The notes: a model not told the origin generated them from the sequence alone. Positions 763 to 56,923 are shown, numbered from the stretch's first letter. The stretch: DNA of 64,000 nucleotides from Candidatus Omnitrophota bacterium (GCA_030698625.1 JAUYMS010000048.1:21879-85878); one strand, 5' to 3'. Program-made: numbers and translations.

Positions 763-815
763 GTGCATAAAAGGTCTAGCACACTCTGGGAGCTAAAGAT
801 TACGGGAGCAGCATA

Positions 816-2453: not shown

Positions 2454-2478
2454 GCTTAATCGATACCTGGTTTTTGAA

Positions 2479-4723: not shown

Positions 4724-4733
4724 GGAGAAGGTC

Positions 4734-5393: not shown

Positions 5394-5436
5394 AATGAGT
5401 GCAACAATTGACAAGCATAGGAATCGCGCAAAAAAA

Positions 5437-6354: not shown

Positions 6355-6411
6355 GAGCTCAAAAAACACGACACGATCGATGCGAATACCTTATTAAAGG
6401 GTAAGGAATAC

Positions 6412-7236: not shown

Positions 7237-7259
7237 GGAAGCGCGAGCCAGATATCATA

Positions 7260-8392: not shown

Positions 8393-8407
8393 TGTTGATG
8401 AGGTGTC

Positions 8408-10381: not shown

Positions 10382-10392
10382 GGAACTGCTAG

Positions 10393-15578: not shown

Positions 15579-16174
15579 AAGCCTACGCGGACTGGATGGC
15601 GCAACTCATTGAGGCATTCATTAAGTTTCCGGGAATCGGACGGCGTTCGGCGGAACGGATCGTTTTCTATTTATTGAAAACGAAGCGTGAAGAGGTAAGT
15701 CGCCTTGCCACGCTGCTTGGGAAGGTCCGCGACACGGTCTTTTTCTGTGACATCTGCCACAATTTTTCCGATGCCAAAATCTGCCACATCTGCTCGGATC
15801 CGGCGCGCGATCAGGGTGTCATCTGCGTTGTGGAGGATCCTAAAGATGTCATCGCCATTGATAAGACCCAGGAGTATGTCGGTGTTTACCACGTTCTTTT
15901 AGGTGCGCTTTCGGCTCTCGACGGCATCGGCCCTGCCGAAATCCAAATACAGGGTCTTCTGACGCGCGTCAAAACCGGTAAGGTGAGGGAGGTTATTATC
16001 GCGACCAATTCGAACACCGAAGGGGAAACAACCTCCCTTTATCTGGCTAAAGTCCTGAAACCGCTAGGCGTCAAAATTACCCGAATTGCGCGGGGGATAC
16101 CGGTCGGAAGTCACATCGAATTCATGGATCAAGCCACCCTGTCGCGAGCCCTCGAAGACCGCGTCGCGACGTAG
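15575..16174 (+). CDS. recR: Recombination protein RecR
   Basis: HhH region PGIGRRSAERI, C4 zinc finger CDICHNFSDAKICHICSD, Toprim ICVVEDPKDVIAIDKT. ATGA overlap with dnaX. Confidence 0.95.
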   Translation: MKAYADWMAQLIEAFIKFPGIGRRSAERIVFYLLKTKREEVSRLATLLGKVRDTVFFCDICHNFSDAKICHICSDPARDQGVICVVEDPKDVIAIDKTQEYVGVYHVLLGALSALDGIGPAEIQIQGLLTRVKTGKVREVIIATNSNTEGETTSLYLAKVLKPLGVKITRIARGIPVGSHIEFMDQATLSRALEDRVAT

Positions 16175-31400: not shown

Positions 31401-34400
31401 GCCAATTTGGGAATGAATGCGATTCTCTCTATTTCGCTGGCCATTGCACGTGTTAAAGCGTGGTCGGAGGGTAAGGAACTTTATCATATCATTCGCGAGC
31501 AGATGGAAGAGACCATGGCGAAGGTGATTGCAGCACAGGCGGATGGTGAGTCGGCTGGTCAGTGGGCGACCGTGCTTGAAGAGAATAGTTTCGATGAATT
31601 GGTGATGGCGTTTCAGGAAGCTTCGGGCAGAATCGCACAGAGTGAAACGCCTCTCTATGAAGTCGTTCGTCAACACCTGCCGGTTTATGACATCAACGGC
31701 GGCCCAAGCACCGTCAATGCCGACCGGTCCGAGCTGCGTCAGACACAGTATGAGCCTAAATCCGTTGAGGTTTTTGCCGAAGGCCTTGAGATGGGAGAGG
31801 CTGCTGCTGAACGTATCATCGAGGTGGCGGCGAAATACCACAACGAGGGCGGGGCCGTCATCCAAATTCCCACAGGATCTACACCGGTGCCGATGTACTG
31901 GCACCTCATCAAGCGCTTCGAAGAAGACCGCTCAATCGATTTGTCGCGCGTCAAATTTTTTAATCTCGATGAATATGTCGGCCTTGAGGCCAACCACCCG
32001 CTCAGCTACCAGTTTTTTATGCAGGAAGTACTCTACAAGCATCTTGATGCTATCGATAAGCAGCAGCGATTACAGCGTGCGCCGAAACCCGAAAACCGCA
32101 ATGTGCCCTCGATCGATTTTTTGGAAACGCATACCGGATACCGCCGCGAGCAGGGTGCGGACGCGGCTGCGGCCATCTATGAAGCTCGCCTTGCCGAGGC
32201 GGTGAAGGCGACGGGGCGCAACATATCGGACCTTACGATTCTGGGCGCCGGCGGCGCCTACCCCTTAGACGGACCCAACGGCTTCCTTAAGACCGACGAC
32301 GGCCGGTTTATCCTGGCCGGCGGGCATATCGGCTTTAATGAGCCGGGTTCCAAGCTGACCGACCGTACGCGTGTCATCAACCTGACGGCCAAGACCAAGA
32401 AGGACACGGGCTTTCGCTTCGGTAATATCCTCAAACGCGGCGATTATCGCGGCCAGTGGGCGGCCAAGGTGCCGGACCAGGCGATTACATTGGGTGTTGC
32501 CAATATTTTGCAGAGCGCCGAGATTCTTCTCCTCGCTAACGGCGAAGAGAAGTCGATCGTCATGAAAGAGGCCTATGAAAACGAGCCCAATCCGGATTTT
32601 CCCGTAACCTTCCTAAAATATCATAAGAATGTTCACTGGCTGCTTGACCGCGATGCCGCCAACAAGCTGCCGCATGTGCTGACACCCTGGACGGAGTATG
32701 AGGATTACGAGTGGACTCAGACAGGCATACGTCAGGCTGTCATCGAGGCACTACGCCGCAATCCCGGCATTACCATCGAACAACTGCGGCGCAGTCATCT
32801 CAACGCTATCGGCGTGACAAACCCGACTCTTGCCCGCTTCGGCGGCATTACGCAGATCAAAGAAGATCTCCGGACCTTTCTGCAGCCGCACTTTTCAACC
32901 GGCAGCAAGGCTCTGTTACCGCGCCGCCAGAACATTGTCATTTTCTCGCCCCATCCTGATGACGATGCGATTACCTCAGCGGCGACGATCCGCAAGCTGG
33001 TGGAGCGAGGCAACAATGTCACCATCGTTTATCAGACCGGAGGAGAAAATGCAGTTCGCAAGGAAGGTAAAACGATACAGATCCACGCGAAACTGGTCCG
33101 CGATTTCATTGCCCGCAAGGGCAAGGATCCGTCCGGCGTCGAAGACCTCGAGCTTCAGCGCATAGCACGTATCCTCACACGCAAAGAGGAGGCCGACAAC
33201 GCCGTTGCTGCCGCAGTTCGCGGCGCACGTTCGCGGGGAGGAGAACTCGGCACCGTGAAAACATTATTTATGGACCTGCCTTACTATTATGCGCGCGGTT
33301 TCGTTGACCAGGCCGCAGTGAGTGAGCAGAAGGATGTGATGCCCACCGTCGACGTATTGAATCAGCTGAATCCGGACCACATCTTTATTTCGGCCGAGCA
33401 GGACCCGCACGGGGCGCATGGCCTCGGCGTCAAAGCCATTCAGCGGGCGCTTCTGCACAACCGGTCCCGAGTGTCGCGGCATGTCAAGATCTGGGGTTAC
33501 CGGGGCGCTTATGAAGAGTGGCCGCTCGAAAACCCGGAAGGCCTCGTCATTGTTCCCTTCGATGAAGCGGCCATGGAAATAAAAATTGATTCAATCCTTG
33601 AGCATGTCTCCCAGCTGAAGCCTCTTTTCCCGAGTTTTGATCCGCGTGAGTTCTGGGAAAGGGCCCGTGACCGCAACGGAGCGACGGGCCGATTGCTGCA
33701 ACAGCTGGGTTTGGTTCCGCCTGACGGCAATTTCTATGCCGAGGTTTTTCGCATAATGACGTTTGAAGAGTTCACCGGGGCACGCTCGGAGCTGCGGGTA
33801 TCCGTCAAAGAAGTCTTGGTCGGGCTTGCGCTCGTGGGTGTGCTCGCGACCGGGTCGCACGGCGCACTACCGGCGAATCAGACGCCCACGCTTGCCCGTG
33901 CCACGCTTACGGACAGAAGCACGCTACCTTACGGGGTTATTTCGGATCACCCGGTGGTTGTCCTGACCGCCGATTCTTTTACGGTTCAAAAATCCGGGAG
34001 AAACCACTACCTGGTGCCTTCAGGAAGCGGTCTCAAGATTCAAGTCACTGCCGGCAGTGTCGAGGTTCGTGACGGTCTCGTGATTCAGGTCAGCGAAGGG
34101 GACCGGCACTTGGCGGCGTTCAATCTCAAAGGGGAGGTCAAAAAAGCCGTTGCGGCCTCGAATGAACGCAAACAAGGTGAGCGCGATTTGACCGACCTGC
34201 GGCAATTGGCGGTCAATTTAGGGACGGCTCTGAATCGCTCCTTTTCGAGAATAGACAGTGTTTCCCATGATTTTGAGATAATGCAGGCATTGAAGGCGTA
34301 TCGAGATCGTGTCGCAAAAGGTATTGATCTCGAGACGGATAAGGAGGCGCAGGAAGCTGTCGCCGAGATCGTCGCGGCTTATTTGGCGCGCATCGAGGCG

Positions 34401-46400: not shown

Positions 46401-47366
46401 AAATCCGCGGCGAAATACGAAGGCCGCTTCGAGAAACGAATCATTAATGTAGAAGCCGTGAACCGCTCCGAGCTGCGGACCGCTACGGCTGAAGTCGCAT
46501 TGCAGACTCCGTGGGAGACTGAATTTGCCGATGCATTGCGTGCGATCGAGAACGTGTTGTGGGGCCGTTACGAGATTACGCGCGAAGTCACGGTGATTGC
46601 CGCACGCCTCATTTTGCCGATTATTCCGCAGGACGTGCTGAATGCCGGGCGCGTGCGTGAATTCCTCGAGGCCGATCTGTTCGGGCCGCAGTCGCGTGCC
46701 CTCGCGGCCGTCACCGGTATCGATACCTTCTCGGATCAGGCGCAGGCGAATCTGGCGCAAGCGGCGATCAATATCCGTCTTCTGGATCGAGTGCCCGAGA
46801 ATTCCCGCTACCTTGTCGGGATCGAAAAGATTCTTGCGGACCAACCGGGTCTTTACCTTCGTGCGATTGTGGTGGACGGGGACGAAGCGCAGGTGCGAGC
46901 CGCGGGCGATTTGAATCGTGCCTTCACATATGGCTACCCGCATTTGGCTAATCGGTTCCGGATTGATGTGGTCTCTGAAAGGAGATTGAGTGCCGCTGTC
47001 CAGGAAACGATAGAAGAGACGCATAAGAATGTCCGGGCAACCGAGGCGATTTCCACAGAGGAGCTTCTGGATCGCGCCACCCTTTCGAGTGTGCGCGAGG
47101 AGTGGCTAGAGCGTGTTCTTGTTCAGGCTAAGTGGCGGGTTTATGACAATGTCGAAGAAACGCGTTTGGGCGAGGAGCTTGTCGGGATTCAACTTGAAGC
47201 CCTCCTAGCGGCCGACCACCTTGATGCCGAATTGCTCAAACAACTTGAAGGTCGGCAAAAAGAGCGTCATATTACTCGTCAGGATCTTTATAATGCCGTG
47301 GATGAGGTTGCCGCGAATCTTTGGGAAGCCTATCTCGGCGATCGTAAGTTTTACGAAGCAGCCTAA
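16455..47366 (+). CDS. Giant 10,303-aa modular membrane-anchored mega-protein built of enzyme-like domains separated by RSELR motifs
   Basis: 30,912 nt with no stop codon in one frame. Consistent codon structure throughout, and only short spurious ORFs on the opposite strand. N-terminal signal/TM anchor. Domains are recognisable by direct motif alignment (see domain features). Confidence 0.9.
   Translation: [10303 protein letters not shown]
16506..16562 (+). other. N-terminal signal peptide / signal-anchor helix of the giant protein
   Basis: [21 protein letters not shown]: positive n-region, hydrophobic core, AWS-AP possible signal peptidase site. Confidence 0.6.
16700..18010 (+). other. 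TraB/GumN/TIKI-like domain (module 1)
   Basis: [15 protein letters not shown] resembles the TraB GTAHV block. C-terminal [13 protein letters not shown] resembles the TraB-family GxGH block. Confidence 0.35.
19200..19900 (+). other. Calcineurin-like (PPP-type) metallophosphoesterase domain (module 2)
   Basis: Ordered motifs TDYHG (GDxHG-like), GDYVDRG (GDxxDRG) and GNHE in canonical spacing. Confidence 0.6.
21850..23300 (+). other. PEP synthase / pyruvate-phosphate-dikinase-like ATP-grasp nucleotide-binding domain plus phosphohistidine (PEP-utilizers mobile) domain; no C-terminal PEP/pyruvate TIM barrel (module 3)
   Basis: [29 protein letters not shown] aligns to PPDK [52 protein letters not shown]...[11 protein letters not shown] aligns to VQAMVFGN.G.TSGTGV.FTRNP...LYMLQ.[22 protein letters not shown] aligns to TSHAAVVARGWGKCCV, so the phospho-His is retained. 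[14 protein letters not shown] aligns to GDWLSLDGSTGEV. No GLCRTEHMF-type barrel follows. Confidence 0.7.
24345..24389 (+). repeat. 45-nt direct repeat copy A (encodes [15 protein letters not shown])
   Basis: tcggaattgcgcgaggcagggaccgcgatgcggtccgagctgcgc is 43/45 identical to copy B at 26424-26468, with a 41-nt perfect core. Confidence 0.9.
24650..26220 (+). other. Two protein-kinase-like (APH/RIO/Kdo-kinase-like) motif blocks within module 4
   Basis: [32 protein letters not shown] and [32 protein letters not shown] resemble the HGDLHPGNILV...IDW catalytic-loop / DFG-like arrangement. Weak. Confidence 0.25.
26424..26468 (+). repeat. 45-nt direct repeat copy B (encodes [15 protein letters not shown])
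   Basis: tccgaattgcgcgaggcagggaccgcgatgcggtccgagctgcgt, 2079 nt downstream of copy A in the same frame. Confidence 0.9.
27300..27960 (+). other. Glu/Leu/Phe/Val dehydrogenase-like domain, NAD(P)-binding part (module 5)
   Basis: [17 protein letters not shown] aligns to GDH [32 protein letters not shown]...[23 protein letters not shown] aligns to KTFVVQGFGNVG...VGESDGSIWNPDGID. The upstream GGxKGG catalytic-Lys motif is not evident. Confidence 0.6.
29100..29760 (+). other. M50 (site-2-protease)-like transmembrane HExxH metalloprotease-like block (module 6, N-terminal part)
   Basis: Hydrophobic helix [18 protein letters not shown] directly followed by HERGH (nt 29343-29357). Downstream AAAGPAAS (cf. 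M50 AGPxxN) and a further helix ending AFLDRL (cf. LDG). 3-4 TM helices. Confidence 0.4.
29900..30800 (+). other. Enolase C-terminal TIM-barrel domain (module 6, C-terminal part); no enolase N-terminal capping domain
   Basis: Colinear match to enolase: GGVHT/[153 protein letters not shown]. All barrel catalytic and metal residues are conserved. The first ~140 aa of enolase are absent. Confidence 0.75.
31760..32700 (+). other. Glucosamine-6-phosphate deaminase (NagB)-like domain (module 7, N-terminal half)
   Basis: IQIPTGSTP (LPTGGTP), FNLDEYVGL (FNMDEYVGL), [24 protein letters not shown] ([25 protein letters not shown]), [24 protein letters not shown]. Confidence 0.8.
32920..33500 (+). other. 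LmbE/PIG-L-like deacetylase domain (module 7, C-terminal half); with the NagB part this gives a NagB-II-type architecture
   Basis: [13 protein letters not shown] (AHPDDE zinc motif) and DPHGAHGLG (HxxH) about 150 aa later. Confidence 0.6.
38460..39080 (+). other. DUF218 (YdcF/SanA/ElyC)-like domain (module 12)
   Basis: [35 protein letters not shown]...[19 protein letters not shown] resembles DUF218 VLGg....R...a..l...g....iivsGG...le..StnT.eNa. Confidence 0.35.
39250..40260 (+). other. D-isomer-specific 2-hydroxyacid dehydrogenase (PGDH/D-LDH-like) domain (module 13)
   Basis: [32 protein letters not shown] (substrate-binding domain signature), [18 protein letters not shown] (NAD-binding GxGxxG-like), [14 protein letters not shown] (Arg/Glu of catalytic triad), RSPHILAST (catalytic His). 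Confidence 0.75.
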
Positions 47367-47380
47367 AAAGAAAGTACTCA

Positions 47381-48115
47381 ATGCCGCGTCGCAGCATCCT
47401 GGTCCTCGATTCTCCGGATACCCACTGGACTTCTCTTATTCAAGAATATTTTCAGGATACTTCTTCGCAGGTCGATTGCTTTGATGCAGCTGCCCCGGCG
47501 GGTCAGGCCCTGGATAAAACCGGTCACGATCTAGCCTTTATAAACCCCAAACTTCTCAATCTTGCCCTGACCCAAAAACTCCTTTCTGTACGACAGACCC
47601 GGCCGGATTTCCGTATCTTTGGTTTGGGTAAAGCCGCTCAAGCAAATAAAATTCCTTACAGCGCTCTCTTTGAAGAGGAGATCTCCTTGTTTGACTTTAG
47701 CAAGAAGGTGGTCGAGGCTGTGCCGCTTCCCGAGGCGATTCAGGTCGTGGTGGTTGACGATGAGGAGGCTATAGCCGCCATGGTTTGTGATTACTTGAAA
47801 GGGCGATCGAATCCGGTTTTTCAGGTGCGTTACGCAAAGAACGGTGAAGAGGGGATGCGGCACTTGACTGAAAAGCAGCCCGATGTGCTTATACTCGACA
47901 TCAAGATGCCCGTCAAAGACGGGCGTGAGGTGTATCGCGAAATTCAGGCGAAGAAATGGAATTTCCCGGTGGTCGTTTTCTTTGATGCGGTTTCAGCTCA
48001 CGAAATGCTTGAGATTCGAAAGGCCGGTAACCCCGTAGTCCTCGAAAAGGGTTCACGCGAAAGCACCATGCCTGAGATGATGGTCCTCATTAAAAAACTC
48101 GCCTTCTTCGGGTAA
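47381..48115 (+). CDS. Response regulator with tandem receiver domains (first degenerate), no output domain
   Basis: C-terminal half VVVVDDEEAIA...DVLILDIKMPVKDG...PVVVFF is a canonical REC with an acceptor Asp. N-terminal half ILVLDSPD...HDLAFINPKL is REC-like with Asp->Asn at the acceptor position. Starts 14 nt after the giant-ORF stop. Confidence 0.75.
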   Translation: MPRRSILVLDSPDTHWTSLIQEYFQDTSSQVDCFDAAAPAGQALDKTGHDLAFINPKLLNLALTQKLLSVRQTRPDFRIFGLGKAAQANKIPYSALFEEEISLFDFSKKVVEAVPLPEAIQVVVVDDEEAIAAMVCDYLKGRSNPVFQVRYAKNGEEGMRHLTEKQPDVLILDIKMPVKDGREVYREIQAKKWNFPVVVFFDAVSAHEMLEIRKAGNPVVLEKGSRESTMPEMMVLIKKLAFFG

Positions 48116-48119
48116 CCGC

Positions 48120-49214
48120 ATGAAACCGTTGCGTCAGCTGCTAATAGGGCTTATTTTTACCGCGCTCTTAGGGTCGGGATGCGCGTTGATGCTGCCCTCC
48201 AAAGCGATTACCGAAGATGGCTGGGGCACGGAGGGGCCTTACCGCGGCGTATTCCATGTCCACAGCGAACACTCTCACGATTCTGCCATTACCTTTGAAG
48301 ATGCCCGGAAGACGGCAAAGAAGGCGAATCTGGATTTCGTGGTCATCACCGACCATAACAATCTGGATGGGCGCGCGGCATACGCTGACGGTGAGTATGA
48401 GCCGTACCCCTTGCTTGTGCTCGGCACCGAAATCACGACCGGTGACGGCCATCTCATTGCGCTGGGTATCGACGAGTATCCGCAGAAACAGTCAACTAAA
48501 GAGCTTGTGAAGTGGATTCACGACCGCGGTGGATACGTGGTAGCGGCCCACCCCTTGTCGGTGAGAACTCCGTGGACTGACTGGAGCATCAAGGATATCG
48601 ACGGCTTTGAGGTTTATAACTTTGGTCATGCCGCCTACACGCAGAATAAGGTGCTCTTGGCCTTGAAGGCGCTTTTCTATCCGCCGCACAAATTCCTGAA
48701 ATCAACCCAAGACGCTCCGCTGGATCACATTCGCTTTTGGGAACAGAATCTCACAGGCAACCACACGGCGATCGTCGGTGCGGCGGACGCACATATTCAC
48801 TTTGAGTTCCTCGGGATGTCGCCTGAGAATTTGCGTATGTACTTTGAATCTGTTACCACTTATGTGATAGCGAATCGTCTGGAAGAAAAGGCTGTGGTGA
48901 AAGCGATCGGGGAGGGCAGAAGTTACCTCGCCTTTGAGGTGCGAGGCGATGCCTCCGGGTTTACCTTTACGGCGGTTTCCGGTTCTCGGGAATTGGAAAT
49001 GGGGGATACGGCACGGTCCGGCAAGTCCGTGGAGTTTAAGGCGGCATCGCCGGGACGGGCCTGGATGTACCTTATCAAGAACGGCCAAGTCGTTGAGAGC
49101 CGGCGCGGAACGGAACTGCGCTTCACAACGGCAGATGCGGGTGTGTATCGGGTGGAAGTTCACAAAGACGGAGGGCTGTGGATTCTCTCCAATCCAATCT
49201 ATGTGGAGCCTTAA
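48120..49214 (+). CDS. Secreted PHP-domain metal-dependent phosphoesterase
   Basis: Signal peptide MKPLRQLLIGLIFTALLGSGCA. PHP motifs GVFHVHSEHSHDS, FVVITDHNN and later His/Asp blocks. Starts 4 nt after the response-regulator stop. Confidence 0.8.
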   Translation: MKPLRQLLIGLIFTALLGSGCALMLPSKAITEDGWGTEGPYRGVFHVHSEHSHDSAITFEDARKTAKKANLDFVVITDHNNLDGRAAYADGEYEPYPLLVLGTEITTGDGHLIALGIDEYPQKQSTKELVKWIHDRGGYVVAAHPLSVRTPWTDWSIKDIDGFEVYNFGHAAYTQNKVLLALKALFYPPHKFLKSTQDAPLDHIRFWEQNLTGNHTAIVGAADAHIHFEFLGMSPENLRMYFESVTTYVIANRLEEKAVVKAIGEGRSYLAFEVRGDASGFTFTAVSGSRELEMGDTARSGKSVEFKAASPGRAWMYLIKNGQVVESRRGTELRFTTADAGVYRVEVHKDGGLWILSNPIYVEP

Positions 49215-49390
49215 ACTTCAATGAAGAAGGTGAAAAGAGGCTGTCAGAAACATGCGGCGGAGTTCTCTGGCCGTATCAGCAACTATCAAAGTCACAACCG
49301 CTTGACATGACTTTGATGGGCAGGATAGGCCAAGAAATCCGAAGCGTTTCAGGCAGACTCGTTTTCACCGCTCGTAAGACGAGGGGCGCA

Positions 49391-50470
49391 GTGAATATAA
49401 AAAGTTTTGCTCACAGGTTGCTTTCGTGTCTGATACTGTCGCTGCTGTTATCGGGGTGTGCGGTATGGCGGCCGTTCTCCGCGAACACGATTAATGCAAC
49501 CCCCGAGTTGAGCGAGGAGTACCGGGAGTATTACGATTATCCAACACCCGACCTCGACGGTCGATTGGTGTTTGAGGAGGAGAAGACCTATTATACCCTG
49601 CGTCGGTACGAGATCCCGTTAACCTTGCCCGAGTCTCTTCAGCATGATTCTCCGGCTTCCTTGAAACAAGCGGCCGAAAAAAAAGCGGAAACAGATCAGA
49701 AAAACGCCCGAGATCTCGAACTCCGGTATTTAACGCGAATCGATTACTATCTTCCGAAGAACCTGCAGCCGGGCCAGAGACGGCCGGCGATTCTGATCTC
49801 GCCGATTCTGGGCGGCAATATGGTGGTCGACCGCTTCGCTAACTATTATGCAGGTCGCGGTTTTGTCGTGGTGCTCGCACACCGCAAAAAAACTTTCTGG
49901 GTGGACGGACGCGGGATTCAGCAGGTGGAAGACTATATGCGGACCTCGGTGATCCGGCTGCGGCAAGCAGTGGATTGGCTCATGATTCAGCCGGAAGTCG
50001 ATCCCGATAGGATCGGAGCTTTTGGCATTAGCTATGGGGCGGTGCTTCACACGGTCCTGGCGGCCGTTGAACCGCGATTGAAATATCACGTGTTAGCTAT
50101 GCCCGGCGGACCTCTTCCGGAGGTGATTCGAGATTGTCCGGACGGGAACATTACCAAGCTATGGCGTAATGCACAGCGGGATACAGGGTGGCCCGACGAG
50201 AAGATTCTTGAGGAGCTGAGACGTGTGCTCAAGACCGATCCGATTTTGCTGGCACCTTATGTGCCGCGCGAAAAAGTGCAAGTGTATGTCGCCATCTTCG
50301 ATCGCGTTGTGGGTGCGGGCCGTTCCTGGGGTTTATGGAAAGCGCTTGGCAAACCCGATCTCAAAATCATGCCCTTCGGCCATTACGGCGGGGTCCTCGT
50401 GTTTCCCTTCCTACAGAGCCAGTCCGCCTGGAATCTTAAGCGGCATCTCGGCCAAGCTCGTCAAAATTAA
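49391..50470 (+). CDS. Lipoprotein alpha/beta-hydrolase (dienelactone-hydrolase/S9-like)
   Basis: The ORF is open from 49178. GTG 49391 gives a classic lipoprotein signal MNIKSFAHRLLSCLILSLLLSGC (lipobox LSGC), preceded by GAGGGG. GISYG nucleophile elbow, ILISPILGG. Alternative ATG starts are at 49307 and 49316. Confidence 0.65.
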   Translation: MNIKSFAHRLLSCLILSLLLSGCAVWRPFSANTINATPELSEEYREYYDYPTPDLDGRLVFEEEKTYYTLRRYEIPLTLPESLQHDSPASLKQAAEKKAETDQKNARDLELRYLTRIDYYLPKNLQPGQRRPAILISPILGGNMVVDRFANYYAGRGFVVVLAHRKKTFWVDGRGIQQVEDYMRTSVIRLRQAVDWLMIQPEVDPDRIGAFGISYGAVLHTVLAAVEPRLKYHVLAMPGGPLPEVIRDCPDGNITKLWRNAQRDTGWPDEKILEELRRVLKTDPILLAPYVPREKVQVYVAIFDRVVGAGRSWGLWKALGKPDLKIMPFGHYGGVLVFPFLQSQSAWNLKRHLGQARQN

Positions 50471-52874
50471 AGCGCAGGTATTCGGTTTCGGCAGCGCGCT
50501 TTCCGTCTTTTGCATTGGCAACCCAGAAATCCGGAAAAGCATAGACCACGCTTTGAATGTTGGATTGCGGTGCGATTTCGAGTGCTATCGCCTGAGCGAC
50601 TTCGGCATCAATTTTACCGAAGTGATCCTGCACGAGATTCCCGTGTTTGAGATAACGGATTTCATAGGCACTGCCGCGCGGAACTTCCAAGCCGGGCGTG
50701 TCGGGATCTCCCTTGGAGGCCCTCTGAAGATTTCGTATGACGGGGTCGAGGGCCGGGTCGCCTCGAAATACCGCGCTGTGAACAGGCAGGGCATAATTGA
50801 CGGTCAGCTCATGCGGGTCGTGATCGCGAAAGACGGCAAGGTGATTTTGTGTGGTTTCAACCGCAACCGCCTCTTTGCGCACGGCATCGGCGATCAAATA
50901 ATTGTAACCGCGGGTGCGGTAGTTCCGCTCTAAGATACCGATCGCATCCTCCAAGCTTTCAGCCTCGGCCAAAACACGCTTCAAGAGAAACGGCATAGGA
51001 ACGCCTTCCATGGTTTCATCGACGGATGTGGCACCGATCTGGCCGACAGACAATCCCCGCGCATTCATTCCTGACAGGACACCCGTGAATCCGTAATAAC
51101 CAATATTGACATAATTCGGTCCCGCGCCGTTCTCGACATATTTTACGACCGCCCACTCGTGCACCCCCATGTGACGATTCCAGTCGAGATTGCGAATCGC
51201 AATTAACTGACCGCTTGATGTTGCCGGACCCCAATAGGCCCCGTTAGAACAGAACGTAGGATACAGTTCGGGCATGGCGTGAATACGCTGCAGGACTTTT
51301 AATGAGACACCGGATCCGTCGGCCATTCCCTTAAGTTGTTGTTTTTCTTCATAAGACACATAAGGCGCCATCTTTTTCCAGGCTCGATCGCCGATGTGAT
51401 TGATGATTAGGCGATTCAACAAAGGAAGATGCAGCTCTGAGCGGAAATACTTAAAGATTGCCGAGGATCCCGTGCGGATTTCATCGCGTAGTAGCCGGCC
51501 TTCTTCATACCCGCGGTGGTAGGCCGTTCCCCCAAGTTTTAGCACGGGGAGGTCTTGGTGGTAATAGAGGTCCGCCGGTTTCTCGATTCTTTCTTCGGGC
51601 GTCTTCACGGCGGCGAGCAATTTCGCTACGCGTTCGTGATAAAAGTCACTCAGCTTACCGCCATAGAAACTGACGCGCGATTCGTATTGACCGGCGCCTT
51701 TATGGTATTGATGCGGGCTGACGGCATAGCCGACATAGTCATTGGCGTATCCGGCAATAAAGGGTTTTAACGCGGATGAGCGAATCTGCCGTTCGAGGGC
51801 ATAGCCGACATCCGAGGCAAGCTCGCCCGGAAAAGTTACGACCACGAAATCTCCCATGCGGATCGCCTGAAAGTATGTTTTTCTCGGAAAGATACGGTTG
51901 CCCAGAATTGATGGAATACGGAACCAGCCCAATCGAATGCGGGTTCGGGGCAGCCGGACCCGTTGAATCTCAGTTTTCCATACACCGTTTAAGTTGAGCG
52001 GCGCATAGGAAACTTGTGCAACCTTTGCGACTATCGCCTTGCCGTAGTTCTCCATGCTTCGCCACCGGTCTTCGGCAGCTTGGGTGTGCGGACGGAGATC
52101 GCCTGCGGCACCGTTGATGAAGACGGTTACCGATCCGGTATGCATCTCTTCAAGGCGGCTTGTCACGACTCCGGGATAATCGGCCGAAAAGGAAAGTTCC
52201 CTCCATGGTGCGAGGGTTGCATGTGCGGCCATGAACAAAATCTGCCCGGCAAGGCTCCCGTCGGTTTTCTTGAAGCGCATAAGTTTCAAGTGTTTGGGGT
52301 GAGTTAGCTTTTTGTCCATCCTGTTTTCGACTAAGTCATCAATACGTACAGAACCGTATTCGGCCCGAACGGGAATGGGATTTTGTATCGATTCAATGAT
52401 GGTTCGGGCGACCTGATCCGTGAGTTTCTCAAAAACAGATTTCCGGAATTTTCCCATGATATATTTTTCCCAATGGCGTCCTCCTATTGCGCCGGATCCC
52501 GTATGCGTGTGCGTCGCTGTCAAGAGGAGGTCTTCGGAGCGGAGAAGGACACCTGCATTCACTTTCTGCAGGATCGTCTTTCGCAGTTTCTCGTCGATGA
52601 GACAGAGGTCCAAAGAGACAAAAACAATTTTCTGATCGCCGTAACTGAGTGCAAGAGACCGCGCGTAGAGGGGGTCATGCATACCCACAGACGGTTTGCC
52701 CCGAATCTTTCCGTAGCCGGAGAGGGGGGTTCCTATGGCCGGCGTGATCTCGTTCTTTGCCGTGCCTAGGGTGAGCTCGGCGGCCCGGCATGTATTGATA
52801 TAACATGTTGATATAGATAATGTTATAAAAATAGCTGCCAGTAGGCGCCCGATGCTATGTTGGATTCTGCTCAT
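50436..52874 (-). CDS. Secreted fusion of a neutral/alkaline ceramidase catalytic domain (N-terminal) and a C45-family (acyl-CoA:6-APA acyltransferase-like) Ntn-hydrolase domain (C-terminal)
   Basis: N-terminal signal peptide. ITPAIGTPLSGYGKIRGKPSVGMHDPLYARSLAL...IVFVSLDL and TATHTHTGSGAIGG (neutral ceramidase blocks). C-terminal GTAYHRGYEEGRLL, FCSNGAYWG (Ntn Cys), RNLDW, NYLIAD (C45 blocks). Convergent 35-nt overlap with the lipoprotein gene. Confidence 0.75.
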   Translation of the reverse strand: MSRIQHSIGRLLAAIFITLSISTCYINTCRAAELTLGTAKNEITPAIGTPLSGYGKIRGKPSVGMHDPLYARSLALSYGDQKIVFVSLDLCLIDEKLRKTILQKVNAGVLLRSEDLLLTATHTHTGSGAIGGRHWEKYIMGKFRKSVFEKLTDQVARTIIESIQNPIPVRAEYGSVRIDDLVENRMDKKLTHPKHLKLMRFKKTDGSLAGQILFMAAHATLAPWRELSFSADYPGVVTSRLEEMHTGSVTVFINGAAGDLRPHTQAAEDRWRSMENYGKAIVAKVAQVSYAPLNLNGVWKTEIQRVRLPRTRIRLGWFRIPSILGNRIFPRKTYFQAIRMGDFVVVTFPGELASDVGYALERQIRSSALKPFIAGYANDYVGYAVSPHQYHKGAGQYESRVSFYGGKLSDFYHERVAKLLAAVKTPEERIEKPADLYYHQDLPVLKLGGTAYHRGYEEGRLLRDEIRTGSSAIFKYFRSELHLPLLNRLIINHIGDRAWKKMAPYVSYEEKQQLKGMADGSGVSLKVLQRIHAMPELYPTFCSNGAYWGPATSSGQLIAIRNLDWNRHMGVHEWAVVKYVENGAGPNYVNIGYYGFTGVLSGMNARGLSVGQIGATSVDETMEGVPMPFLLKRVLAEAESLEDAIGILERNYRTRGYNYLIADAVRKEAVAVETTQNHLAVFRDHDPHELTVNYALPVHSAVFRGDPALDPVIRNLQRASKGDPDTPGLEVPRGSAYEIRYLKHGNLVQDHFGKIDAEVAQAIALEIAPQSNIQSVVYAFPDFWVANAKDGKRAAETEYLRFNFDELGRDAA

Positions 52875-52944
52875 GACATGTTTCCCATAGAATTATGCCA
52901 TATGAGGCAAAGGCAATGCCGCTTTATTCCGATAAAGAGATGAT
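52875..52944. promoter_or_regulatory. Divergent 70-bp intergenic region between the ceramidase fusion (minus strand) and the CHASE2 kinase (plus strand)
   Basis: Short AT-rich spacer (ttcccatagaattatgccatatgaggcaaaggcaatgccgctttattccgataaagagatgat) flanked by two divergent start codons. Confidence 0.3.
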
Positions 52945-54963
52945 ATGGTTAAATTGCTTAGGCTGAGTCGACTCAGACATGAATTTCTTAATCTCGTCAA
53001 TGATCGCCGGAAGCAGTACGAGTTTCTGGTCGGGATTGTGATCGCGCTTGTTCTGTTCGGCATTTGGCGGGCGGGATCCTTCGATAAATTTGAGAATGTT
53101 TTTTTGGATTTGCGTTTTCTGCTTCGTCCCATCAGAGCCTTTCCGGAGGCCATCAATGTCATTGGCATTGATGAAGCCAGTCTTGATCATCCGGATCTCG
53201 GGCGCTGGCCCTGGTCGCGTCAAAAGCACGGGCACCTTCTTTATCTTCTGAGTCAGCGGAGTTTTCGTCCCGCCGAGGTGGGCTACGACGTTCTGTTTGA
53301 GAACAAGGACAAGTACGAACCCTCGGGAGACGATAGCCTTGCTTACCGGGCCGAGCAGTTTGCGCCGCATGTCTTTATGTCCTATTTTTTGGAAAAGGGA
53401 TTTGTCTCAAAGTTTGAGTACAACGAAGAGAAGCAAAAGCGGCTTGAAGACTTCGCTGTTCTGAACGACTCGCGAGCTCCGCCCAACCTATTGGAATACG
53501 ACAAAGTTTCCGTTCCTTACCTTGAGTTGGCGAAGGCCTCGAATCTCGGGTTTGTCAACGCGCCCGTCGACTCCGACGGCCGTACGAGGCGCATTCCGCT
53601 TCTCGTCCGCTACCGGGGTAAGACTTACCCGTCATTCAGTTTACTCATGGCGTTACAGCGTTTGGGTGCCGGTATATTGGATATTCAGGTGCGGGAGGAC
53701 AGAATTATAATCGAGAAGGAAGACCTGCACCGTGTCATACCTCTCACGGATCGCGGCGAAATGCTCATCAATTATTACGGCAGCAGCGCACTCATTACGA
53801 GCTATTCCTTTCTGGAGGTTCTCTCGGCCGGTAAAGCGTGGATGGACGGCGAGACTAATCCCGAAATTCTTCAGTCCTTCAAAGACAAGCTCGTGTTAGT
53901 GGGCGCAACAGCGCTTGGGCTCAAGGATAGCCGGACGACACCCTTCTTTGAGTATGAACCCGGCGTCAGTATCCAGGCGCAGGCGATTGCCAATATTCTC
54001 GACAATGCCTTTTTGGCCCACGCTGCGTGGCCGGTATCGGCCGCAATGCTGTTTCTTTTGGCCTTTCTAGTGACCGTTATCACCATGTTGACGCGAATTA
54101 CGTACTCTCTTCCGCTCACGATCGGTTTGGGGGTCGCTTATTTTTTCGGAAACCTGCTTCTGTTCATCAACGGAATATGGATCGATATGGCGGCTCATAT
54201 GGCGGCTATCGCTCTCATCTTCATTAGCATCACATCCTTCCGCTATTTTACGGCGCTGCAAGAATTGAAGCGAGCGCAGGAACAGCTTATTCACTCCACT
54301 AAAATGGCATCTATGGGGGAGTTGTCTGCGGGTATCTCGCATGAATTCCGCAATATTCTGAATGCGATCAATCTTCATATTGAATTTTGTGCCATGCCGG
54401 GACGAACCCCGGAGCAGATTTCAAAATACATGGTGAAAATCAAAATGATCATGAAAAATGCCAGCATGATTCTAAACGGACTGCTTACTTTCGCGCGCAA
54501 GAGTGAATCCAATAAGGTGCTGGGTAGTCTGAATACGACAGTAGAGGAAACCCTCCTGCTTATTGAAAAGGAAATGATGCGGCACAAGATTTCGATTAAT
54601 GCGCAGTTGCACGATGTCCCTCAGGTTGCCTTTGATAAGGGGCAGATCTCGCAGGTCATCATGAATCTCATCAATAACGCCCGTGATGCGCTTCAGAATC
54701 AGGATGAAAAACTCGTGACGCTTACACTTACCGAAGAGGCGCATTATGTGCGTCTTGATATCGGAGACAATGGGGCCGGCATCCCGCCGGAAGTGCTCAA
54801 GCGCTTGTTCGAGCCTTTCGTGACCAGTAAACCCGCGGGAAAGGGAACCGGGTTGGGTCTTTCGGTTTGTCACGGCATCATCACGAATCACGGCGGTGAA
54901 ATTAAAGTGACAACTCTCCGCGGCAAGGGTACCACCTGGCATATCTTTTTCCCAAAATCCTAG
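52945..54963 (+). CDS. CHASE2-domain sensor histidine kinase
   Basis: N-terminal TM helix plus periplasmic CHASE2-like region and 3 TM helices (aa ~330-420). HisKA ELSAGISHEFRNILNAI. HATPase N/G1/G2 boxes IMNLINNARDAL, DIGDNGAGIP, GKGTGLGLSVCHGIITNHGGEI. Confidence 0.85.
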   Translation: MVKLLRLSRLRHEFLNLVNDRRKQYEFLVGIVIALVLFGIWRAGSFDKFENVFLDLRFLLRPIRAFPEAINVIGIDEASLDHPDLGRWPWSRQKHGHLLYLLSQRSFRPAEVGYDVLFENKDKYEPSGDDSLAYRAEQFAPHVFMSYFLEKGFVSKFEYNEEKQKRLEDFAVLNDSRAPPNLLEYDKVSVPYLELAKASNLGFVNAPVDSDGRTRRIPLLVRYRGKTYPSFSLLMALQRLGAGILDIQVREDRIIIEKEDLHRVIPLTDRGEMLINYYGSSALITSYSFLEVLSAGKAWMDGETNPEILQSFKDKLVLVGATALGLKDSRTTPFFEYEPGVSIQAQAIANILDNAFLAHAAWPVSAAMLFLLAFLVTVITMLTRITYSLPLTIGLGVAYFFGNLLLFINGIWIDMAAHMAAIALIFISITSFRYFTALQELKRAQEQLIHSTKMASMGELSAGISHEFRNILNAINLHIEFCAMPGRTPEQISKYMVKIKMIMKNASMILNGLLTFARKSESNKVLGSLNTTVEETLLLIEKEMMRHKISINAQLHDVPQVAFDKGQISQVIMNLINNARDALQNQDEKLVTLTLTEEAHYVRLDIGDNGAGIPPEVLKRLFEPFVTSKPAGKGTGLGLSVCHGIITNHGGEIKVTTLRGKGTTWHIFFPKS

Positions 54964-55021: not shown

Positions 55022-56923
55022 ATGAAATTATTCATCGTATTTTTTATTGCGTGCTATGCGTGTCTTGTACCCACGGCCCGAGCCGAAATCCTTATGGGGC
55101 TTTCGGATGCCGAGTTGCTCGAGACAATCGAGCGAAAGGCATTTGATTATTTTGTCTATGAGCGGGATTCAAAAACGGGGCTCGTGAAGGACAAAGCGCA
55201 TAATTTCCAAAGGGGAGCGACAAAGTCGACATCGAGCATTGCGGCGACAGGCTTTGCCCTTACGGCTTATGGCGTAGGCGTCCAGAACGGCTGGATGGAT
55301 ATCTCAACCGCGCGCGAGATGACGCGGCGAACGCTTCATTTCTTTCTTCATAACGCGGCGTCAGAGCGTGGTTTTTTCTATCACTTCCTAAATATGGAGA
55401 CCGGTGAAAGGGCTCGTCGCAGCGAACTCTCACCCATCGATACGGCGCTTTTTCTCGCCGGGGCCCTGTATGCCGCAGAGTATTATGATGATCAGGAAAT
55501 CAGGGATCTCGCGACGCAGCTCTATGAGCGGGTGGATTGGGCATGGATGCTGCATGGTGAGCTCACTCTGGCCAAAGCGTGGTCCCCGGAAACGGGTTTC
55601 GAAAAATACCGTTGGGATAGTTATGACGAAGCGATGATTATGTACCTGTTGGCCATCGGATCGCCGACGCATCCGCTTCCGGCGGAGAGTTGGCAGGCAG
55701 TGGCCCGGCCCGTAGGAAGCTACGGCGGTTATCGCGTTATTCAAATGCCTCCGTTATTCACGCACCAGTATTCCCATATCTGGATTGATTTCCGAAATAA
55801 GAATGACGGTTACGCGGACTATTTTCAAAACTCGGTGAACGCTACTTTGGCAAACCGCGCCTTCTGTATCAAAGAGTCGGCAAAGTTCTCAAGCTACGGA
55901 GCGACCTCGTGGGGGTTGACGGCCTCCGACGGACCCTTCGGCTACCGTGCCTTCGGCGCACCGCCGGGTTGGGCGGAGCACAACGGGACGATTGCTCCCA
56001 CGGGCTGTGGGGGATCCATCGTGTTTACTCCGGAAGAATCGATTGCGTGCCTGAGGCACTTTTACGAAGACCTCGGAGAATCGCTCTGGGGCATGTACGG
56101 ATTTTCCGATGCGTTTAACCTCGATAAAAACTGGTTTAGCCGGGATGTTCTCGGGATTGATCAGGGCACACTTTTGCTGATGATTGAAAATTACCGTTCG
56201 GGTCATGTGTGGGATGTTATGAGCAGAAATACCTATTTGGCGGGGGCTATGGAGTTGGTGGGGTTTCGTTCGGGTACGAAGGAAGTGCCCTGGCCGGATC
56301 CCCCGAAGTTTCACGCGCCTTATCTCAGCGACGGCATCAAAGTCGACGGCTATTTGAAAGACTGGCCAAACGGAGAAGTGATCATCCTGGATAAATCGCA
56401 TAAGGAAACGGGAAGCATTCAGGACGACAAGGATCTCAAGGCGGAGGTGCGGTTTGCCTGGAGTGAGCAAGCCCTTTATTTCTATGCGAAGGTTACCGAC
56501 GAGTCCGTGCTGGTGAGAAAATCGGGTAAGGACATATGGCTCGATGACCTTATCGAAATTTACATTGATCCTGCCGGTGACGGCCTCTCCTGGGGCGATG
56601 ATCGCGATTATCAAATCGGTTTTCGCGCCCGAGAGGAGGATGAAGAGGTGCTAAGCTGGTCCTGGTTCCAGGGCGGCGAGGACCCGGGCGAAAAAGGAAT
56701 GGTCGCGGCGCGCGGCTTCGTTTATGAGGATGGCTACATTATAGAGGGGGGCATTCGCTGGCGATACCTGGGGCTGGAGCCAAGCGAGGTTGAGACCTTG
56801 AAGCTTTCGGTGGCTGTGCACGATATTGACCATGACCGCAGCCAGGGAAAGGTTCAGTGGTTTTTTCGTAATGAAGATGAGCTCAAACGGTTTGTCCTGG
56901 GTGAGGTTGTATTGACGCGATGA
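55022..56923 (+). CDS. Secreted (alpha/alpha)6-barrel glycoside hydrolase of the PF10091 'glucoamylase-like'/GH144-type family with a C-terminal CBM9-like domain
   Basis: Signal peptide. Blocks SIAATGFALTAYG, IDTALFLAGALY, GLTASDGPFGY, IAPTGCGGSI, GIDQGTLLLMIENY. C-terminal DGYLKDW...AEVRFAWSEQALYFYAKVTDE...DDLIEIYIDP (CBM9-like). Confidence 0.6.
   Translation: MKLFIVFFIACYACLVPTARAEILMGLSDAELLETIERKAFDYFVYERDSKTGLVKDKAHNFQRGATKSTSSIAATGFALTAYGVGVQNGWMDISTAREMTRRTLHFFLHNAASERGFFYHFLNMETGERARRSELSPIDTALFLAGALYAAEYYDDQEIRDLATQLYERVDWAWMLHGELTLAKAWSPETGFEKYRWDSYDEAMIMYLLAIGSPTHPLPAESWQAVARPVGSYGGYRVIQMPPLFTHQYSHIWIDFRNKNDGYADYFQNSVNATLANRAFCIKESAKFSSYGATSWGLTASDGPFGYRAFGAPPGWAEHNGTIAPTGCGGSIVFTPEESIACLRHFYEDLGESLWGMYGFSDAFNLDKNWFSRDVLGIDQGTLLLMIENYRSGHVWDVMSRNTYLAGAMELVGFRSGTKEVPWPDPPKFHAPYLSDGIKVDGYLKDWPNGEVIILDKSHKETGSIQDDKDLKAEVRFAWSEQALYFYAKVTDESVLVRKSGKDIWLDDLIEIYIDPAGDGLSWGDDRDYQIGFRAREEDEEVLSWSWFQGGEDPGEKGMVAARGFVYEDGYIIEGGIRWRYLGLEPSEVETLKLSVAVHDIDHDRSQGKVQWFFRNEDELKRFVLGEVVLTR

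Follow-up and report, generated by a model that had tools for sequence, protein, structure and literature searches.

A tandem-receiver regulator and three predicted exported hydrolases in a conserved neighbourhood of a giant gene of Candidatus Omnitrophota

The genes that adjoin giant genes of Omnitrophota bear on two questions: do the encoded proteins work uncut or as separate pieces, and which genes are their partners? Giant Omnitrophota proteins have been described as containing domains of glycolytic enzymes and of pyruvate phosphate dikinase, cleavage of these proteins is suspected, and their gene neighbours are reported to be conserved (West-Roberts et al. 2023, bioRxiv 10.1101/2023.11.21.568195). 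For proteins of at least 30,000 amino acids, the same study places genes resembling those of type II/IV secretion upstream and PilZ downstream, and it states that the cleavage points are unknown. The terms ‘response regulator’ and ‘polyprotein’ are absent from both giant-gene preprints, as is ‘RSELR’ from the 2026 preprint.

Here we analyzed a stretch of 64,000 nucleotides (the window), the source of which is Candidatus Omnitrophota. Compared with the giants of West-Roberts et al., its giant protein comprises 10,303 amino acids and is encoded after dnaX-recR and before genes for a response regulator (RR), a PHP-type metallohydrolase (PHP) and an alpha/beta-hydrolase (ABH), the latter facing a convergent ceramidase-like/C45 gene (Cer/C45). 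According to the original prediction, RR, PHP and ABH form a probable operon with the giant gene and may be accessory factors in the maturation, processing or regulation of its product. The explanation that we favor, at about an even chance, is a conserved neighbourhood of probably functionally related genes that is likely read through in the window and is not a dedicated processing operon. By themselves, the three genes belong to ordinary protein families. The analysis contributes a reproducible neighbour set for a large family of giant genes, made up of one tandem-receiver regulator and three predicted exported hydrolases.

Gene layout and transcription signals behind the giant ORF

The giant protein opens with a G01 module, from a family of 7,434 representative clusters with an EreA/ChaN/TraB-like fold and an invariant His/Glu/His set, and ends with a G17 module that is common to the giants of three other loci (L091, L095 and L170). 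Its ORF contains 18 exact RSELR motifs, where 0.025 are expected, and the motif occurs nowhere else in the window in any frame. RSELR is under selection at the peptide level and has the family-wide form R-[SA]-E-[LVM]-R. Most modules flanked by it are cytosolic-type enzymes without membrane segments. A membrane cluster of the giant protein carries an HExxH motif at amino acid 4297.

Table 1. Features of the giant ORF and the genes downstream of it, in window coordinates.
Feature	Position	Strand	Description
Giant ORF	16455-47366	+	10,303 aa; G01 module at head (16455-18560); G17 module at end (46464-47366)
Spacer, giant stop (TAA) to RR start (ATG)	47367-47380	+	14 nt; sequence read directly
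RR	47381-48115	+	244 aa
RR N-terminal pseudo-receiver	47381-47725	+	aa 1-115; Asn55 at acceptor; AF2, Foldseek
RR C-terminal receiver	47735-48115	+	aa 119-244; Asp126/Asp127, phospho-acceptor Asp173, Lys223; PF00072, AF2, Foldseek
PHP	48120-49214	+	364 aa; PHP-type (CehA/McbA family) metallohydrolase, probable lipoprotein
PHP-ABH spacer	49215-49390	+	176 nt, non-coding; long imperfect hairpin; specific to the window's lineage
ABH	49391-50470	+	359 aa; alpha/beta-hydrolase lipoprotein; lipobox LLSGC; elbow G-I-S-Y-G, Asp, His
Cer/C45 convergent gene	50436-52874	-	812 aa; secreted neutral-ceramidase-like + C45 Ntn-hydrolase fusion
CHASE2 sensor histidine kinase	52945-54963	+	CHASE2 181 bits, with HisKA + HATPase_c

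The gene models agree with the prediction that the trio lies directly behind the giant ORF on the same strand (Table 1). Of the gap sizes given there, 14 nt between the giant ORF and RR and 4 nt between RR and PHP are borne out, whereas the third, put at no more than ~170 nt, measures 176 nt. This last value follows from the start of ABH. The longest ORF spans 49178-50470, and the most likely start within it is the GTG at 49391, because it is preceded at a distance of 5 nt by a GAGGGG ribosome-binding site, homologues begin just ahead of the lipobox and the NCBI model (P0152) also has 359 amino acids.

In a consensus scan of positions 46800-53200, all three gaps were free of canonical terminator-like and sigma-70-like sites; in particular, neither a promoter-like nor a terminator-like site falls between 47366 and 47381. 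Counts of terminator- and promoter-like sites in the scanned region equal the shuffle expectation. These scans are consensus matches only, so that the giant ORF may still contain an internal promoter near its 3' end. The claim that terminator-like hairpins are lacking thus holds for canonical sites. The 176-nt spacer nevertheless folds into a strong hairpin, which has no U-tract (MFE -74.1 kcal/mol, z = -6.56 versus shuffles; opposite strand, -64.2). Only one of ~725 window tiles folds lower. The spacer has no Rfam match, and a search for a second copy returned none. In relatives, PHP and ABH abut or overlap. The hairpin spacer that separates them here may attenuate or process the transcript ahead of ABH.

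With all genes on one strand and two short gaps without consensus sites, followed by a third gap with a strong hairpin, read-through from the giant ORF into RR and PHP is likely in the window, judging from the 14-nt and 4-nt distances. A co-transcribed arrangement with the giant gene is not conserved in relatives. There, the junction between giant and RR measures 49-188 nt and contains a terminator-like hairpin with a 15-bp stem (L172), one terminator-like site (L091) or a sigma-70-like promoter matching 10/12 positions (L171). Furthermore, in L088/L089 the trio lies 6 nt behind a short-chain dehydrogenase (SDR) gene and not behind a giant. Tight packing is therefore a property of the compact block, and it loses the value it had been given as a sign of coupling to the giant. 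Since the relatives carry putative promoter and terminator signals of their own, RR, PHP, ABH and Cer/C45 appear to be an independent unit (hereafter the cassette) that is kept beside the giant without forming a fixed operon with it. An obligatory operon of giant and trio is not supported, given the gap lengths and sites in the relatives and the position of the L088/L089 giant beyond the convergent gene.

The regulator, the hydrolases and the sensor kinase

RR was predicted to contain two receivers, the first with Asp replaced by Asn at the acceptor position, and no output domain; all three traits are confirmed. Pfam detects the C-terminal receiver alone (PF00072, aa 122-231, 62 bits versus a cutoff of 30), but the AF2 model (pLDDT 91, pTM 0.88) comprises two (beta-alpha)5-type domains. 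Its best full-length Foldseek matches in the PDB are the tandem-receiver proteins 3LUF/3MF4 and PleD, over 256-280 columns. No output domain is present.

In the N-terminal domain, AF2 places strands at residues 5-9, 30-34, 51-54, 78-82 and 95-97 and helices at residues 16-23, 37-47, 61-73 and 103-113. The acceptor column after beta3 is Asn55 in the window and N, R, V, H, P or E, but never D, in 19 homologues. Because the acceptor Asp is missing and the fold is receiver-like without helix 4 (AF2), this domain is regarded as a pseudo-receiver. The C-terminal domain has a CheY-like (beta-alpha)5 fold and matches the receivers of PhoP, RR468 and Spo0A in Foldseek with a TM-score (target) of 0.84-0.89. 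D126, D173 and K223 are invariant in the 19 homologues, of which 17 have D and the other two N at position 127. The Thr/Ser after beta4 is absent; in its place, Asp202 followed by Ala203 is invariant in the 19 homologues, a placement that rests on the AF2 strand at residues 197-201. At its C-terminus, RR ends in a conserved Y/F-F-G tail. Based on these models, RR is a cytoplasmic tandem receiver with a presumably phosphorylatable C-terminal domain and a degenerate N-terminal domain.

The REC-REC' part of PleD and 3LUF/3MF4 share with RR two consecutive CheY-like domains of which one keeps the acceptor Asp. In PleD, the pseudo-receiver is the second domain, so the order is reversed in RR. RR also differs from PleD in lacking GGDEF or any other output and in having the invariant D202 in its active receiver where Thr/Ser is usual. 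The absence of a DNA-binding or enzymatic output is reminiscent of CheY, DivK and CpdR, although RR has an additional degenerate receiver and the conserved tail, and no chemotaxis or cell-cycle genes are found near it. Receivers without output act by contacting other proteins or by serving as phosphate sinks, and one of these modes is therefore expected for RR.

PHP matches the CehA/McbA family model NF038032, a broad ‘domain’ model, over positions 3-315 of 315 with 118.1 bits (cutoff 80) and PF02811 with 36 bits (cutoff 26.4). Residues H48, D78, H79, E104 and H225 are invariant in 21 homologues, and H46, H111 and H144 are at least 90% conserved; we take these His, Asp and Glu residues to be the canonical PHP metal-binding motifs. 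A hydrophobic segment at residues 7-25 ends in LLGSGC, and a lipobox pattern is matched in 12 of the 21 homologues. The window protein thus scores above the curated cutoff of the CehA/McbA family and keeps its metal-ligand set. The namesakes are described as carbaryl hydrolases of soil pesticide degraders (PMC5141477). By contrast, the family in question is Omnitrophota-wide and its members, ~365 amino acids long, are mostly lipoproteins that carry a beta-rich extension at the C-terminus and are fixed beside an alpha/beta-hydrolase and a ceramidase/C45 gene. Nothing in the surrounding genes points to pesticide catabolism.

In ABH, the elbow (G211-I-S213-Y-G215) and residues D303 and H330 show no variation among 24 sequences, and a lipobox pattern is matched in 15 of the 24 homologues. 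Its matches in Pfam (Peptidase_S15, DLH, S9) and by sequence in the PDB (MHETase-like, S33, YcjY, lipase; E>=2.6e-7) are weak. Homologues form 190 clusters at 35-70% identity, and those with a name are Omnitrophota. ABH resembles CocE/NonD (S15) and dienelactone hydrolase in its alpha/beta core, GxSxG elbow, Asp and His, but differs from the CocE/NonD type by its lipoprotein signal and by matching the S15 profile only in part (positions 46-128 of 262, 32 bits). A scan of the 430-aa ORF translation revealed no other Pfam family outside residues 177-351. With a partial profile match and neither a C-terminal beta-sandwich nor another domain matched, an assignment as a full S15 peptidase was rejected. 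The export of PHP and ABH had been foreseen, and both indeed have N-terminal hydrophobic, lipobox-type signals (GSGC in PHP). The two are thus predicted exported lipoprotein hydrolases with complete catalytic sites.

Cer/C45 (PF04734, 90 bits; PF03417, 44 bits; NF040521, 133 bits) overlaps the 3' end of ABH by 35 nt. It follows ABH in 14 out of 14 orthologous loci and is split into two genes in L106-108. This convergent gene was overlooked in the first reading of the sequence, yet no other gene accompanies PHP-ABH as constantly. The CHASE2 kinase lies 4.8 kb downstream of RR, with a 53% identical copy at the same position in L091, and is a candidate partner of RR. In L170/L171, a single 120-aa receiver occupies this sensor slot instead, and in L095 and L090 the kinase is missing from the block.

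Conservation of the neighbourhood across Omnitrophota

Conservation of the trio beside giant genes had been chosen beforehand as a test of the prediction, and the loss of synteny that would have spoken against it was not observed. The order giant -> RR -> (PHP) -> ABH <- ceramidase/C45 is kept in at least five other genomes. A G01-headed, RSELR-punctuated giant directly 5' of RR marks one clade. It precedes RR-(PHP)-ABH in the window and in L091, L095 (P0281, with five RSELR motifs), L170, L171 and L172 (P0295), with an RR identity of just 40-45% in the latter five. The arrangement PHP-ABH <- Cer/C45 is found in all 14 orthologous metagenome loci and also in L170-172, although L170, with an RSELR-containing giant, has no PHP. 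Other arrangements occur as well. In L088/L089, the order is recR-SDR-RR-PHP-ABH <- Cer-giant, so that the giant (P0414, RSELR-containing, matching G01 at 30% identity with an E of 5e-63) lies at the opposite end of the cassette. In L106-108, it is PHP-ABH <- C45 <- Cer-CHASE2-stand-alone G01 protein of ~1,050 amino acids.

The proposed status of dedicated accessory genes is not supported by this comparison. Seven of the 14 ABH-anchored loci (L090, L097-101 and L104) contain no recognisable giant of the G01/G17 type within ~7-10 kb, and RR occurs without PHP and ABH in at least eight loci, where it adjoins the glycoamylase-HTH-RND block. The backbone consists of dnaX-recR upstream and glycoamylase-HTH-OEP-MFP downstream, and the larger block reads dnaX - recR - [giant] - RR - PHP - ABH <- Cer/C45 - (sensor slot) - glycoamylase/CBM9 - HTH/cupin - RND efflux. 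By its gene context, RR appears to be a backbone gene, and RR, PHP, ABH and Cer/C45 appear to be a cassette conserved in Candidatus Omnitrophota. Because the entire region is syntenic, including dnaX and recR, adjacency alone is weak evidence of a common function. The link between giant and neighbours is a conserved neighbourhood and not a fixed operon, which narrows the choice of experiments.

Functional readings of the neighbourhood

If the genes are functionally related, as we favor, the three hydrolases would act on substrates with ester, phosphoester or amide linkages, probably of a lipid-like kind, in the periplasm, at the outer membrane or on a prey surface, and would take part with the giant protein in one envelope or host-interaction process. 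RR would receive its signal from a CHASE2-type kinase and work by contacting other proteins. These proposed functions are derived from family-level chemistry and export signals.

A serious alternative, albeit an unlikely one, is that the neighbourhood reflects descent with little rearrangement and no common function, the hydrolases being housekeeping envelope enzymes. The unrelated dnaX, recR, SDR, glycoamylase and RND pump genes are equally syntenic in the same genomes, RR lies 6-21 nt behind SDR where the giant is absent from the site, and the PHP-ABH-Cer/C45 triad is far more widespread than its adjacency to giants. On the other hand, a G01-type gene is located less than 10 kb from the triad in three arrangements, one of which is found in distantly related lineages (40% identity for ABH) whose backbone is different. 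This would be an unlikely coincidence if a genome of a few Mb (a size that we assume) held a single unlinked G01 gene, although paralogues exist.

It is rather improbable that RR is the one relevant neighbour, phosphorylated by the CHASE2 kinase and exerting control over the giant protein or the transcription of its gene, either through direct binding or as a phosphate sink, with the hydrolases as bystanders. RR does follow a giant in seven contexts, two of which (L004/L005) lack PHP and ABH, its acceptor Asp173 and Lys223 are intact, the Y/F-F-G tail is conserved and the block repeatedly contains a CHASE2 kinase or a CHASE2-GGDEF protein. Nonetheless, RR is equally conserved behind SDR with no giant in view (L002, L006), the glycoamylase-HTH-RND genes adjoin it more constantly than any others, and the kinase is missing in L095 and L090 and replaced by the small receiver in L170/L171.

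We doubt strongly that giant and trio constitute one operon in which the trio is dedicated to maturation, processing or regulation of the giant protein, with one of the hydrolases cutting RSELR. Adjacency to G01-type giants in at least six genomes, which survives rearrangement, is in line with this idea, as are the weak similarity of ABH to S15/S9 serine peptidases and the autoproteolytic amidase nature of C45 enzymes. Moreover, RSELR is selected and family-wide, so a cognate enzyme must exist if the sites are cleaved. However, the cassette occurs without a visible giant, RR without the hydrolases, and the RSELR giant of L170 without PHP. G01 comprises 5,520 clusters (50% identity, E<=1e-10) as against 190 for ABH (90% identity), a comparison in which the search sensitivities differ. 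PHP and ABH are lipoproteins while the RSELR-flanked modules are mostly of the cytosolic type, and the additional domains found in S15 peptidases are missing from ABH. PHP, ABH and C45 are thus probably not the RSELR-cutting enzymes, and better candidates for an RSELR protease may lie in cis, namely the EreA/ChaN/TraB-like head with its His/Glu/His residues and the HExxH membrane module. Equally unlikely is a single system in which the giant is a polyprotein cut at R-[SA]-E-[LVM]-R by its EreA/TraB/TIKI-like head, ABH or C45, and RR gates processing or release on an envelope or prey signal sensed by CHASE2; were it true, the neighbours would be the first accessory machinery identified for giant-protein maturation in Omnitrophota.

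Gene order and gaps behind the giant gene

The genes of the window follow the order dnaX, recR, the giant ORF, RR (tandem-receiver response regulator), PHP (CehA/McbA-type metallohydrolase), ABH (alpha/beta-hydrolase lipoprotein), Cer/C45 (ceramidase and C45 fusion gene, on the opposite strand), a CHASE2 histidine kinase, glycoamylase/CBM9, HTH-cupin, OEP and MFP. The original prediction placed the giant, RR, PHP and ABH on one strand with gaps of 14 nt, 4 nt and at most ~170 nt. The shared strand and the first two gaps (giant-RR and RR-PHP) were borne out, while the third (PHP-ABH) measures 176 nt with the GTG start of ABH. This start is most likely the correct one, as it is preceded by a GAGGGG motif 5 nt upstream, as the aligned homologues start a few residues ahead of the lipobox and as the NCBI protein for ABH (P0152) also comprises 359 aa. 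The 430-aa ORF was dropped as a model because the homologues and the NCBI model begin just ahead of the lipobox. Since Cer/C45 is convergent to ABH and the two genes share 35 nt at the 3' end of ABH, any transcription unit stops with ABH.

Coordinates of the genes and the hairpin spacer in the window
Feature	Position	Strand	Basis or remark
dnaX	13905-15578		window
recR	15575-16174		window
Giant ORF, 10,303 aa	16455-47366	+	ORF call
RR, 244 aa	47381-48115	+	ORF call
PHP, 364 aa	48120-49214	+	ORF call
Longest ORF for third gene, 430 aa	49178-50470	+	ORF call
PHP-ABH spacer	49215-49390		
ABH, preferred start GTG 49391, 359 aa	49391-50470	+	RBS, homologues, NCBI model P0152
Cer/C45	50436-52874	-	Pfam/NCBIfam-type domain matches
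CHASE2 histidine kinase	52945-54963		window
Glycoamylase/CBM9	55022-56923		window; then HTH-cupin, OEP, MFP

A consensus scan of 46800-53200 found no promoter-like or terminator-like sites in the three gaps, with site counts equal to those of shuffled sequences, and Rfam gave no credible match in 46900-53100. The predicted lack of terminator-like hairpins thus stands as far as the scan is concerned, but the PHP-ABH spacer folds into a single long imperfect hairpin without U-tract (MFE -74.1 kcal/mol, z = -6.6 versus shuffles). None of 200 shuffles reaches this energy, only one of ~725 equal-sized window tiles folds lower, and the + strand folds better than the - strand. The hairpin has no Rfam match and no further copies in the window or any fetched locus; as a single copy, it does not support a MITE or REP-type repeat. 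The spacer is a lineage-specific insertion, as the genes overlap at the PHP-ABH junction in relatives.

Proteins encoded by the cassette

RR, PHP and ABH are members of known families, and each is 100% identical to a protein of a Candidatus Omnitrophota MAG. Nearly all homologues whose source is named belong to Omnitrophota, with a single PHP match labelled Verrucomicrobiae. In RR, Pfam recognizes one receiver (aa 122-231). The AF2 model (19 homologues; pLDDT 91, pTM 0.88) comprises two (beta-alpha)5-type domains, and structure comparison gives the tandem-receiver proteins 3LUF/3MF4 and PleD as best full-length PDB matches (E about 1e-10). In the N-terminal domain, Asn55 follows beta3 and Asp never occurs in this acceptor column across the family, which makes this domain a pseudo-receiver. 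In the C-terminal domain, D126 is invariant, position 127 is acidic in 17 of the 19 sequences, and D173 and K223 are kept. An Asp is also invariant in the family at a site that is usually Thr/Ser (Asp202-Ala203; 47984-47989). RR has no output domain; model, PDB matches and alignment together confirm its earlier description as two receivers, the first with Asn at the acceptor position.

PHP exceeds the cutoff of the NCBIfam CehA/McbA metallohydrolase model (118 versus 80 bits), and its His/Asp/Glu ligand set is kept in the homologue alignment. Sequence features fit the export signals predicted for both hydrolases: the N-terminus of PHP carries a hydrophobic segment ending in GSGC, and ABH a LLSGC lipobox. 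The G-I-S-Y-G elbow, Asp303 and His330 of ABH are invariant among its homologues. Its Pfam-type matches are weak and partial (S15 with 32 bits, DLH, S9), and the nearest solved structures, by PDB sequence comparison, are uninformative. Assignment to the S15 peptidases was dropped, since only part of the profile aligns and ABH lacks the extra domain. Judged from its sequence, Cer/C45 encodes a putative secreted fusion of 812 aa, neutral-ceramidase-like and C45 Ntn-hydrolase. In distant relatives (L106-L108; about 6.9-9.5 kb in L106), ceramidase and C45 are two adjacent separate genes, so the window protein would be a gene fusion.

Synteny and autonomy of the cassette

RR-anchored loci were drawn from 31 clusters of 36-50% identity; a profile search of genome contigs with the RR alignment returned ~5 true orthologues among 80 loci, the rest being mostly generic receivers. 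L002/L003 and L006/L007 share the order dnaX-recR-SDR-RR-glycoamylase-HTH-OEP-MFP-RND, with SDR a short-chain dehydrogenase gene, and the order 3' of RR is identical in L008-L010 and L012. L004/L005 show giant-RR-glycoamylase and onward. Hence, RR belongs to the backbone of the block, and the genes found beside it most constantly are those from glycoamylase to RND. A tblastn search with the SDR preceding RR in relatives gave no match in the window at E<=1, so the giant does not simply include SDR.

Among ABH-anchored loci, PHP-ABH followed by convergent Cer/C45 occurs in all 14 orthologous loci >6 kb, and RR precedes PHP only in L090, L091, L092 and L095. The predicted synteny was found: a giant ends just 5' of RR in L091, L095 and three further NCBI MAGs (L170, L171, L172), of which L170 has no PHP. 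Proteins P0281, P0295 and P0414, which are headed by the G01 module (EreA/ChaN/TraB-like fold), match the giants of L095, L172 and L092, respectively, with full identity. For L170 and L171, the C-terminus of the giant shares 56-60% identity with other G01-headed proteins. In L173, two tandem G01-headed giants directly follow dnaX-recR, so the recR-giant junction is conserved too. These giants (8001-29434 of L173; ENA ERZ27280021 k141_481518) comprise 4,477 aa and at least 2,603 visible aa (called product 2,888 aa). RSEVR motifs occur in both; Pfam matches CsrA in the first, and the second has a 2-hydroxyacid dehydrogenase module in common with the window giant. The content of the slot between Cer/C45 and glycoamylase varies: the window and L091 have a CHASE2 histidine kinase there, L170 and L171 one receiver of 120 aa, and L088 a giant, while the slot is empty in L095 and L090.

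In relatives, the giant-RR gap is 49-188 nt (L091: 71; L095: ~183; L170: 101; L171: 49; L172: 188). It holds a terminator-like site in L091, a hairpin with a 15-bp stem and T-rich tail in L172, and a promoter-like TTGACA-18-TACACT (10/12 consensus match) in L171. In L088/L089, RR-PHP-ABH with convergent Cer/C45 lies 6 nt after the SDR gene, and a homologous giant lies beyond the convergent gene (4,466 aa, RSELR motifs, G01 match of 30% identity, E 5e-63). Seven ABH-anchored loci (L090, L097-101, L104) have no recognizable giant with G01 or G17 (end module) within their flanks. As the cassette is packed behind SDR or occurs without a giant in relatives, tight packing is a property of the block, and RR-PHP-ABH-Cer/C45 is an autonomous unit. 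For the window, the simplest reading is predicted read-through into RR, 14 nt past the giant stop codon. Of the original interpretation, the conserved neighbourhood remains; given the gap signals and SDR placement in relatives, an obligatory operon is not supported, and neither is a role as dedicated maturation factors.

A putative functional link between the hydrolase triad and G01-type genes is nevertheless likely. A G01-type gene lies <10 kb from the triad in three arrangements that are hard to ascribe to chance: 5' of RR, 3' of Cer/C45, and as a stand-alone protein of ~1,050 aa after a CHASE2 gene (L106-108; distant lineages, ABH 40% identity). Against such a link, the whole block is syntenic and G01 paralogues exist.

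The RSELR motif and candidate processing enzymes

Giant ORFs are frequent and poorly understood in Omnitrophota (Seymour et al.). West-Roberts et al. (bioRxiv 10.1101/2023.11.21.568195) described giant proteins with glycolytic-enzyme and PPDK domains, suspected cleavage at points given as unknown, and reported secretion-system genes 5' and PilZ genes 3' of the giants. Response regulators are mentioned neither there nor in the 2026 complete-genome preprint (bioRxiv 10.64898/2026.06.07.730766), the sole preprint searched for 'RSELR', which does not contain it; a literature search for this term matched only software names, e.g., varSelRF. Unlike the surroundings reported for the largest giants, window 1-13850 has no type II/IV secretion genes; it comprises polysaccharide-biosynthesis genes (WbqC, two GT2 glycosyltransferases, methyltransferase, hexapeptide transferase, PhyH, DegT aminotransferase, TPR protein).

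With its punctuation motif, G01 head and permuted enolase, the giant has more unusual features than the trio. It contains 18 copies of RSELR against 0.025 expected, with codons varying among copies, and the motif is absent elsewhere in the window. In related giants, RSELR, RSEVR, RAEVR or RSEMR is the commonest 5-mer. Across the giant and proteins P0272-P0421, the punctuation follows a family-wide pattern, R-[SA]-E-[LVM]-R, of which RSELR is one form; one of these four or RAEMR is the commonest 5-mer (>=3 copies) in 30 of the top 150 G01-headed matches. Distant G01-headed members repeat [AG][AS]SLG instead.

That PHP, ABH or Cer/C45 cut at RSELR is not supported. The sequences of PHP and ABH suggest exported lipoproteins, while most RSELR-flanked modules are enzymes of cytosolic type that contain few membrane segments (metallophosphatase, Glu dehydrogenase, enolase, GlcN6P isomerase/PIG-L, 2-hydroxyacid dehydrogenase). 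Moreover, L170 lacks PHP, the cassette is found without giants, and the G01 family counts 7,434 clusters at 50% identity versus 190 at 90% identity for ABH, in searches of differing sensitivity. Candidate proteases in cis are an HExxH module and the G01 head. The latter was identified by fold comparison alone, with no sequence-level identification in Pfam, NCBIfam or PDB; its superfamily includes the proteases TIKI and TraB/PrgY. The HExxH segment (WWHERGHYW, ~29340-29360, giant aa 4297) has no Pfam match and lies between hydrophobic segments of a membrane cluster (aa 4268-4395); it possibly represents a metalloprotease module of the membrane type.

The enolase module (29052-31724) appears circularly permuted, with Enolase_C (segment aa 297-581) preceding Enolase_N (aa 622-813). 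A 16-aa double motif, RSELREAGTAMRSELR, occurs at 24342-24389 and 26421-26468 (giant aa 2630-2645 and 3323-3338), with the same codons for its EAGTA core in both copies. Finally, a hydrophobic signal-anchor-like segment (33783-33850, giant aa 5777-5798) directly follows one RSELR (RSELR-VSVKEVLVGLALVGVLATGS), as would be expected if each module were set free as a polypeptide of its own and carried its own targeting signal.
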